DNA of 41,002 bases from a virus. Taxonomy: Duplodnaviria > Caudoviricetes. Positions within the stretch are counted from its first letter, which is position 1. Each line of letters opens with the position of its first letter. Where the stretch lies: positions 1 to 41,002 of IMG/VR virus record IMGVR_UViG_3300048856_000012; one strand, written 5' to 3'. The position numbers and the translations under genes were made by a program. Positions 6,559 through 7,452 of the stretch are shown here, in pieces. A model generated the notes under the pieces. It was given only the letters and a program-made list of their open reading frames with translations, was not told where the DNA came from and made no database searches.

Positions 6559-7452
6559 TTACATTACGCATTCAATGAAGATGCGCGCCGCTTCAGCGTT
6601 GATAGCGTTTCCGTAGGCGCGCAGTCGTCCCACTCGGGAGGCAACGCCATCAGCCAGCGGGAATGTGCCGGGTTCAACTGGCCGCCACCGGGCATCCCGG
6701 CAGAGGAGCCAGTCAGCATCTGCCCATTGGCCGTTAACCGGGCCGGCTGGTCTGTCCGGGTCAATGCAACCGCCTGATTCAGGGGCATGCCCGTATCCTG
6801 TGGGCGGGAGTCCTTCGCTCCTCGATGAGCATCCGCCGCCGTCACTGTTGGCCACCCGCAGAGATACGCCTGTCGAGGTAGCTGATCCAAACGGTCGGCT
6901 CCGTCCCGCTGCGCCGTCATGCCCGGCGTGTCCTTGTGATCCCGTGTCGTTGGAGTGACCCACCCAGAACAATCTGTCTCTGATGTGCGGCGCACCGACG
7001 CCCGCAGACGGGAACGGGACAGCCCCGAAGGCGTAACCCAGGGCTTCCAGGTCAGCGTGTACAAGGTCGACCCAAGGCTCGACAGCTTTACTCGCAACCT
7101 GCTCTCCAAAGACGACTGGAGGGCGGCACTGCTTGATGAGCCAGGCGAACGATGGCCAGAGGTGTCTTGAGTCCGCAAACCCACCTCCCGCGCCTGCCGA
7201 GCTGAAAGGCTGGCAGGGACAACTTCCCGTCCATACTGGTCGCGTGTCGTCCCATCCAGCGCGACGAAGTGCGAGGGACCAAACTCCAACGCCAGCGAAG
7301 AAATGGCATTGGGTGAAGCCTTTGAGGTCGTCTGCTGTAACATCTTCGATACTCCTTTCATCTACAACGCCGGGTGCTATCTGCCCCGCTCCGATCAGGT
7401 TACGCAGCCACTGCGCTGCATAGGGGTCGAACTCGTTGTAATAGGCGGCCAT
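6559..7452 (-). CDS. DNA cytosine-5 methyltransferase, catalytic (alpha) chain
   Basis: FFAGVG (motif I), [11 protein letters not shown] (IV), GEQV (VI), PHIRDRLFW (VIII), LRAYGNAI (X); start overlaps cro stop (TGATG). Confidence 0.92.
6564..7343 (-). CDS. Nested alternative-frame methyltransferase beta chain (motif IX plus putative TRD repeats)
   Basis: 259-aa frame inside alpha; AAAGGAG 8 nt before [20 protein letters not shown] resembles motif [11 protein letters not shown] and GWPTVTAAD repeats. Confidence 0.8.

Follow-up and report, generated by a model that had tools for sequence, protein, structure and literature searches.

Two overlapping genes on the minus strand of a myophage genome probably encode the two chains of one predicted cytosine-5 (C5) DNA methyltransferase, in which an alpha chain would provide catalysis, a beta chain would provide target recognition, and the assembled enzyme would serve in anti-restriction. 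The dual-coded locus itself is real and well supported, and both of its reading frames are conserved. A two-chain enzyme written in nested frames had been proposed from the letters of the window alone (the window being the whole 41,002-nucleotide stretch of DNA that was analysed), and this original prediction is now strongly supported by conservation and by a topology that is common to the M.EcoHK31I-type gene.

The locus and its genomic surroundings

The source record is one 41 kb virus genome, 89% complete, and the window carries a myophage gene set comprising terminase, portal, sheath, DnaB, an O-like initiator, RecT/YqaJ, NinB and RusA. Motifs are named below according to the established numbering of C5 methyltransferases. 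The features of the locus are as follows.

7452..7625, minus strand: Cro-like gene (PF14549, E 3e-20), whose stop overlaps the alpha ATG
6559..7452, minus strand: alpha chain, 297 aa, C5-methyltransferase large domain (PF00145, E 2e-13, above cut-off; phrog_363, E 1e-87)
7396..7446, minus strand: alpha motif II-like segment, residues 3-19, ahead of motif I (profile match, model alignment)
7285..7302, minus strand: alpha motif I (FFAGVG, 51-56; profile alignment, conservation)
7210..7218, minus strand: alpha motif IV, catalytic Pro-Cys-Gln (79-81; invariant in 102/102)
6604..6615, minus strand: alpha motif X (YGNA, 280-283; Y280 G281 N282 invariant)
7352..7358, minus strand: internal Shine-Dalgarno (SD) AAAGGAG with an 8-nt spacer to the beta ATG, formed by alpha codons GAA AGG AGT
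6564..7343, minus strand: beta chain, 259 aa, nested, +1 frame (phrog_1008, E 4e-32; phrog_31772, E 2e-35)
6993..7136, minus strand: beta 70-117, conserved helix and beta-hairpin over alpha motifs VI-VIII (pLDDT about 80, low entropy)
6855..6962, minus strand: beta module 1 (128-163), commonest family (31/281 modules, positions first to fourth)
6747..6854, minus strand: beta module 2 (164-199; 18/281 modules, positions first to fourth)
6630..6680, minus strand: beta motif IX-like tail (222-238; low alpha wobble entropy, EcoHK31I-type alignment)
6531..6553, either strand: hairpin 3ʹ of both stops, terminator-like on both strands (consensus match only)

Translation of alpha is likely coupled to that of the Cro-like gene via the overlapping stop and start codons. 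Terminator-like hairpins, as judged by consensus match, number five against 2.7 in shuffles. Neither an integrase nor an S24 repressor family turned up in this 89% complete record, and thus a temperate lifestyle is not demonstrated for this phage; a Cro-like gene and lambdoid replication and recombination genes occur here in the same phage without a match to either family.

Three other genes of the window deserve mention. A 203-aa gene (9270-9881, plus strand) of the alginate lyase family (PF08787, E 4.5e-24) resides among early, not tail, genes, and no signal peptide is obvious by eye in its product. A 286-aa protein (10353-11213, plus strand) carries an N-terminal Lar restriction-alleviation domain and might be the product of a second anti-restriction gene. 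Finally, a tail protein (22204-23925, minus strand) with a sialic-acid acetylesterase (SASA) domain is likely to be a receptor-modifying spike.

Alpha resembles a C5 methyltransferase catalytic domain with apparently rearranged motifs

Alpha, which runs from an ATG at 7452 to a stop at 6559, is likely a C5 DNA methyltransferase catalytic domain, as predicted from its match to PF00145. An AF2 model of the chain aligns with M.HhaI over 171 residues (Z 14.1, rmsd 3.3), and Foldseek matches the model to the C5 methyltransferase large-domain fold (E 5e-8). Invariant residues in 102 of 102 alphas include P79 C80 Q81, G54, R158, R160 and Y280 G281 N282, as well as E7, D31, R33 and D37. The motif inventory originally listed for alpha (I, IV, VI, VIII and X, with no IX) was confirmed, with two refinements: motif VI reads EQV instead of ENV, its Q118 being invariant, and the chain begins with a segment that resembles motifs II and III.

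The resulting series, II-III-I-IV-VI-VIII-filler-X, departs from the canonical order I to X. When a canonical profile is aligned with alpha, motif I falls on residues 46-68 and the motif IV region on residues 73-101, with no space between them for motifs II-III. Motif I (49-67) ends four residues short of the motif IV strand, and residue 1 of the alpha model pairs with residue 34 of M.HhaI. Residues 3-19 score above 60 of 60 shuffles when compared with canonical motif II, yet their HH probability is 7.5%. With HMMER, residues 1-44 matched canonical motif II no better than shuffled sequences did, and on their own these residues matched no methyltransferase among PDB sequences. Overall, the cofactor motifs of alpha appear to be rearranged (II-III-I-IV...X) in a manner that is not a circular permutation. 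The accessible text of one survey reports natural permutations of C5 methyltransferases in the variable region only and describes a search that required motif X before motif I, a design by which the order II-III-I-IV is undetectable (PMC5944983).

A conserved open reading frame nested within alpha

As originally predicted, a same-strand frame of 259 codons lies wholly inside alpha. Its ATG at 7343 corresponds to alpha codon 37 and is located 109 nt after the alpha start, which places beta in the +1 frame, and its stop at 6564 lies 5 nt before the alpha stop. Both PHROG families matched by beta carry the label DNA methyltransferase. The sequence, spacing and codon origin of the proposed SD likewise proved correct, and its AGG codon is indeed a rare one: among the 333 Arg codons of 11 further genes of the phage, 19 are AGG. 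The predicted duplex with the anti-SD is -8.2 kcal/mol at the beta ATG, compared with -1.7 at an upstream in-frame ATG (7361).

Conservation of this arrangement was evaluated in IMG/VR relatives, using the best 80 of the 545 loci that alpha retrieved and the best 80 of the 509 that beta retrieved. Seven incomplete loci were left out, and de-duplication at 90% yielded 116 loci, 60 of them picked by alpha alone; the set represents close relatives (49-78% identity) and not a random sample. In 58 alpha-picked loci (two that have no motif X anchor were left out), the +1 frame contains one stop in 14,440 codons, whereas the control frames contain 601 stops (+2) and 175-370 stops (antisense frames). 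The sole +1 stop is the ordinary end of beta in one locus (L011), and thus the frequent interruptions for which a check of homologues had been proposed were not seen. Beta is unbroken to its motif IX-like tail in 59 of the 60 non-redundant alpha-picked relatives (58 by pattern, L039 by eye), and a deletion in the remaining locus (L050) affects both frames. Open frames of this length seldom arise from alpha codons by chance: a stop-free 259-codon +1 frame resulted from 0.3% of 20,000 synonymous recodings of alpha with phage codon usage and from 0.03% of 20,000 shuffles of alpha's own codons.

Two loci with frameshifts were also encountered. A redundant locus that was left out of the set (L040) is frameshifted at a run of G within a module, so that both frames are broken, and in another (L108) a shift immediately downstream of the beta tail moves motif X onto beta. 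Each could be an assembly error or a natural switch.

Among the alpha-picked loci, GGAG at the Arg-Ser codons is accompanied by the beta ATG in 35 of 35 cases, whereas an ATG is present in 6 of the 25 that have no GGAG (Fisher p 9e-11). The AGG codon is used at the SD site in 26 of 60 cases, compared with 2 of 61 upstream. Both elements are missing at this site in 19 of the 60 loci. Some loci offer an alternative ATG four or five codons downstream, preceded by GAGGA or GAAGA. In one subfamily, a start codon is missing within 30 codons, and its beta therefore likely starts further in. In the present phage, beta is likely to be translated from its own internal start.

Selection on both frames in parts of the overlap

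Third-base entropy at four-fold codons of alpha, calculated for 114 loci of which about half were picked by beta, reveals where the nested frame constrains alpha. Entropy is 1.76 bits outside the overlap and 1.66 bits over the first 39 residues of beta, and it is 0.49 bits under the beta helix-hairpin and 0.22 bits under the beta tail. The helix-hairpin (beta 70-117) likely contacts alpha.

A different pattern is observed over the variable region. Within module families, changes sorted by beta codon position number 1819 at the third position versus 673 and 485 at the others. For beta, 1404 changes are synonymous and 749 nonsynonymous; for alpha, the counts are 129 and 1998. This contrast is inflated, because similarity between betas was the basis on which the families were drawn up. 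Change over this region is mostly silent in beta and not in alpha, which argues that alpha is filler there. The original description of the alpha variable region as Gly/Ser-rich filler is thus borne out: residues 174-226 are predicted to be disordered (pLDDT <50), the filler is 19% Gly across relatives, and this alpha spacer ranges from 38 to 211 residues in 96 loci. When alpha itself was searched, motif IX-like sequence was found in 0 of 116 loci and module sequence in 1 of 116.

Beta modules and the motif IX-like tail

Beta carries an array of short modules followed by the tail. A total of 281 modules from 113 betas were delineated by redoing the split after a first division (311) had over-cut; 111 betas have one to five each, and two have none by pattern. 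The median length of a module is 36 aa, with W, T and D near the start and L, A, L, A and G near the end. The set comprises 104 families (64 singletons) arranged in 104 architectures among the 111 betas. Modules are shuffled in order between betas, and no family is ever repeated within one gene. The present phage carries the two commonest modules, which are found apart in other betas. We consider it quite likely that the modules are target-recognition units, and slightly favour the possibility that the enzyme has more than one specificity.

Assignment of motif IX to beta, as first proposed, is supported by position and only weakly by sequence. One of 40 shuffles scored as high as the tail when compared with a canonical motif IX profile. 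When a wide beta profile was aligned with the beta chain of an EcoHK31I-type gene, the best alignment fell at motif IX with 6.3 bits, and 3 of 500 shuffles scored as high. The segments noted on beta as resembling a target-recognition domain (TRD) are so named by position and selection; in sequence they match neither canonical nor multispecific enzymes. Profiles of the modules and tail do not detect either of the two such enzymes tried, SPbeta MtbP and a canonical plasmid enzyme. Thus, 'motif IX' and 'TRD' are putative labels given on the basis of position and selection, similarity to canonical enzymes being weak or absent.

Searches with beta as a whole returned no Pfam match in 102 members save scattered weak ones, and no match in NCBIfam or PDB sequences. 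A fold search produced nothing above Z 3.8; the underlying model is poor (mean pLDDT 60, pTM 0.27), and the missing match is therefore no evidence of a new fold.

Distribution and prior annotation

The family is common in phages. Of 50,697 phage records, 340 contain a match to alpha and 219 a match to beta. A collection of predicted proteins gave 7,996 candidates, of which 7,201 scored as beta-like. Thirteen more distant genes were also evaluated. Nine of them contain the nested frame (K1G, Kiel007, yong1, CarlMeissner, RcWata, epsilon15, Seifer, N15 and a Bacillus plasmid), ShiLan and Jumbo have it in altered form, and two plasmid restriction-modification enzymes lack it. The enzymes of plasmids pLM16A1 and pAOVO02 proved to be ordinary single-chain ones, whose +1 frame contains 8-10 stops, and were used as negative controls.

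It had been anticipated that standard gene callers would miss beta. This is true of most phage records examined; the nested frame is unannotated in N15 gp58, epsilon15, RcWata, Seifer and CarlMeissner. However, beta is sometimes annotated, with both nested genes recorded in K1G (ORF31/ORF30) and Kiel007 (gp52/gp53), and the existence of PHROG families such as PHROG 1008 and of the many beta-like predicted proteins also runs counter to the claim. No description of phage nested two-chain methyltransferases was found in the literature searched, which covers few subscription papers.

Alternative explanations

Beta could in principle be a real protein unrelated to alpha, or an open-frame by-product of alpha codons, and it does have no recognized fold or Pfam family. 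We regard this as very improbable: synonymous recoding keeps the frame open in only 0.03-0.3% of trials, motif IX-like and module sequences are essentially missing from alpha itself (0/116 and 1/116), and parts homologous to beta are fused in the catalytic frame of ShiLan gp70. Equally little credence is given to a single chain made by ribosomal frameshifting from alpha to beta and back to alpha, with no separate beta. Natural frame-switch forms such as ShiLan gp70, Jumbo and L108 lend this idea some appeal, but two shifts would be required, beta is preceded by an SD that co-varies with its ATG, and beta 70-117 is under selection where it overlaps alpha motifs VI-VIII, two frames that one chain cannot both use.

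A less remote, although still unlikely, explanation accepts that alpha and beta form an enzyme but denies that the modules are specificity units, so that the enzyme would have a single or relaxed specificity, or a regulatory rather than an anti-restriction role. The modules have no similarity to known TRDs, alpha follows cro, and its relatives reside among replication genes. Other prophage m5C enzymes are described in two reports as relaxed and as located near replication genes (PMC5537653, PMC6536676). Against this explanation, the modules form 104 families that are conserved at the protein level within each family, are never repeated in a gene and are shuffled in order, features that fit distinct selected functions. 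We retain specificity modules on a two-chain enzyme as the preferred reading.

Proposed function and mechanism

Anti-restriction is the likeliest purpose of the enzyme, and one we hold with fair confidence. The neighbours of the locus in the window are cro and an unknown gene, with no nuclease gene next to it. Among relatives, 58 neighbouring ORFs (33 with an assigned family and 25 without) were scanned of 88 long neighbours, with likely shadows and near-duplicates dropped, and a type II nuclease family was found in 0 of the 58; the families present are mostly for replication and recombination. Six-base palindromes, CGGCCG and GGCGCC among them, are strongly under-represented in the genome, with z values inflated by counting both strands. 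Such palindrome avoidance, together with the Lar-like protein, fits restriction pressure, and the palindrome counts (again on both strands) did not point to a target site. Added 5mC may also carry a cost, in that one report indicates that it can expose DNA to McrBC-type nucleases (PMC2993543).

The two chains very probably bind each other. In the mechanism we propose, alpha would be made by translation coupled to cro, and ribosomes would also start inside alpha at AAAGGAG-N8-ATG to produce beta. The N-terminal helix-hairpin of beta would hold alpha, each of the two W-x-T-P modules would read one target sequence, and the beta tail would supply motif IX. The middle of alpha would serve as a stop-free filler loop beneath which modules could be added, removed or exchanged, always by whole codons. 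Phage DNA methylated early in infection would thereby be protected from host restriction.

In a broader form of this proposal, which we judge to be evenly poised, the locus would represent a widespread two-chain multispecific family. Its beta chains would be cassette arrays of ~36-residue modules, drawn from a pool of >100 and swapped between phages, on an alpha that tolerates stop-free filler and carries motifs II-III-I in a non-circular arrangement. The result would be a programmable 5mC writer and a hidden counter-defence.

If this reading is true, a layout described as the oddity of one E. coli enzyme would be a common phage design, and phage methyltransferase genes cloned or annotated as single-chain would be half-described. 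Codon optimization of alpha would destroy beta, and the enzyme would then falsely appear inactive. With the module pool, one could test directly how C5 target specificity is determined by short segments, and new specificities could be drawn from it. The locus would also provide a clean example of two genes in one sequence, in which both frames are selected in some parts and the nested frame alone in another.

Comparison with known systems

The nearest precedent is M.EcoHK31I, an E. coli enzyme with the target YGGCCR. According to published reports, this enzyme needs both chains for activity (PMC2836561), with motif IX on beta and motifs I-VIII and X plus the TRD on alpha (PMC2836561, PMC3404938). 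We made our comparison through a near-identical gene (L173), which was found with a primer from the PMC2836561 supplement that matches 81 E. coli genomes. Its chains are 309 and 176 aa, its ends fit the PMC2836561 primers by eye with one residue different, and it adjoins a NotI-family nuclease. As in the phage pair, beta lies wholly within alpha in the +1 frame and ends just before alpha motif X. However, the EcoHK31I-type beta extends from alpha codon 104 to 280 and has no W-x-T-P module, whereas the phage beta starts at codon 37. EcoHK31I also exhibits the canonical motif order and an adjacent nuclease, neither of which is found for the phage enzyme. Moreover, its TRD is reported in alpha, whereas the phage pair carries variable modules on beta and has an unconserved alpha middle that is predicted to be disordered. 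Similarity between the EcoHK31I-type and phage alphas is only 15 bits.

M.AquI (CYCGRG) is likewise composed of two polypeptides, with motif IX and some of the variable region on the small chain, according to PMC3404938. The small chain of M.AquI also has motif X, whereas the phage pair keeps motif X on alpha. Gordonia phage Jumbo gp35 with its +1 frame is nearer to M.AquI than the present pair is: in this AquI-like, partly annotated locus (gp35/36, L165:1300-2191), alpha stops after motif VIII and a 183-codon +1 frame comprises the tail and motif X. In mycobacteriophage ShiLan gp70, the catalytic frame itself holds related modules and a tail. They lie between motifs VIII and X, where canonical enzymes have the TRD and motif IX, which supports the modules as recognition units. 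The ShiLan and Jumbo matches to beta parts score 19 and 25 bits, compared with a shuffle maximum of 8.9. The ShiLan gene (L163:1333-2502) encodes a single chain that includes motif X, yet it retains a 153-codon +1 frame homologous to the N-terminal part of beta.

Multispecific phage C5 methyltransferases such as SPbeta MtbP and M.SPR carry tandem exchangeable TRDs. Like the phage pair, these are solitary phage enzymes with a variable number of tandem modules between motifs VIII and IX, but they are single chains with canonical motif order, and their modules have no detectable similarity to those of the phage beta. The proteins of PHROG 363 (alpha) and PHROG 1008/31772 (beta), and the pairs of K1G and Kiel007, belong to the same families and have the nested layout, and they are described by database labels only. 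The phage pair most likely works like M.EcoHK31I. The nested topology is common to both, with the recognition part apparently on opposite chains, and the phage pair differs in the location of the variable part, in its modular array and in its motif order.
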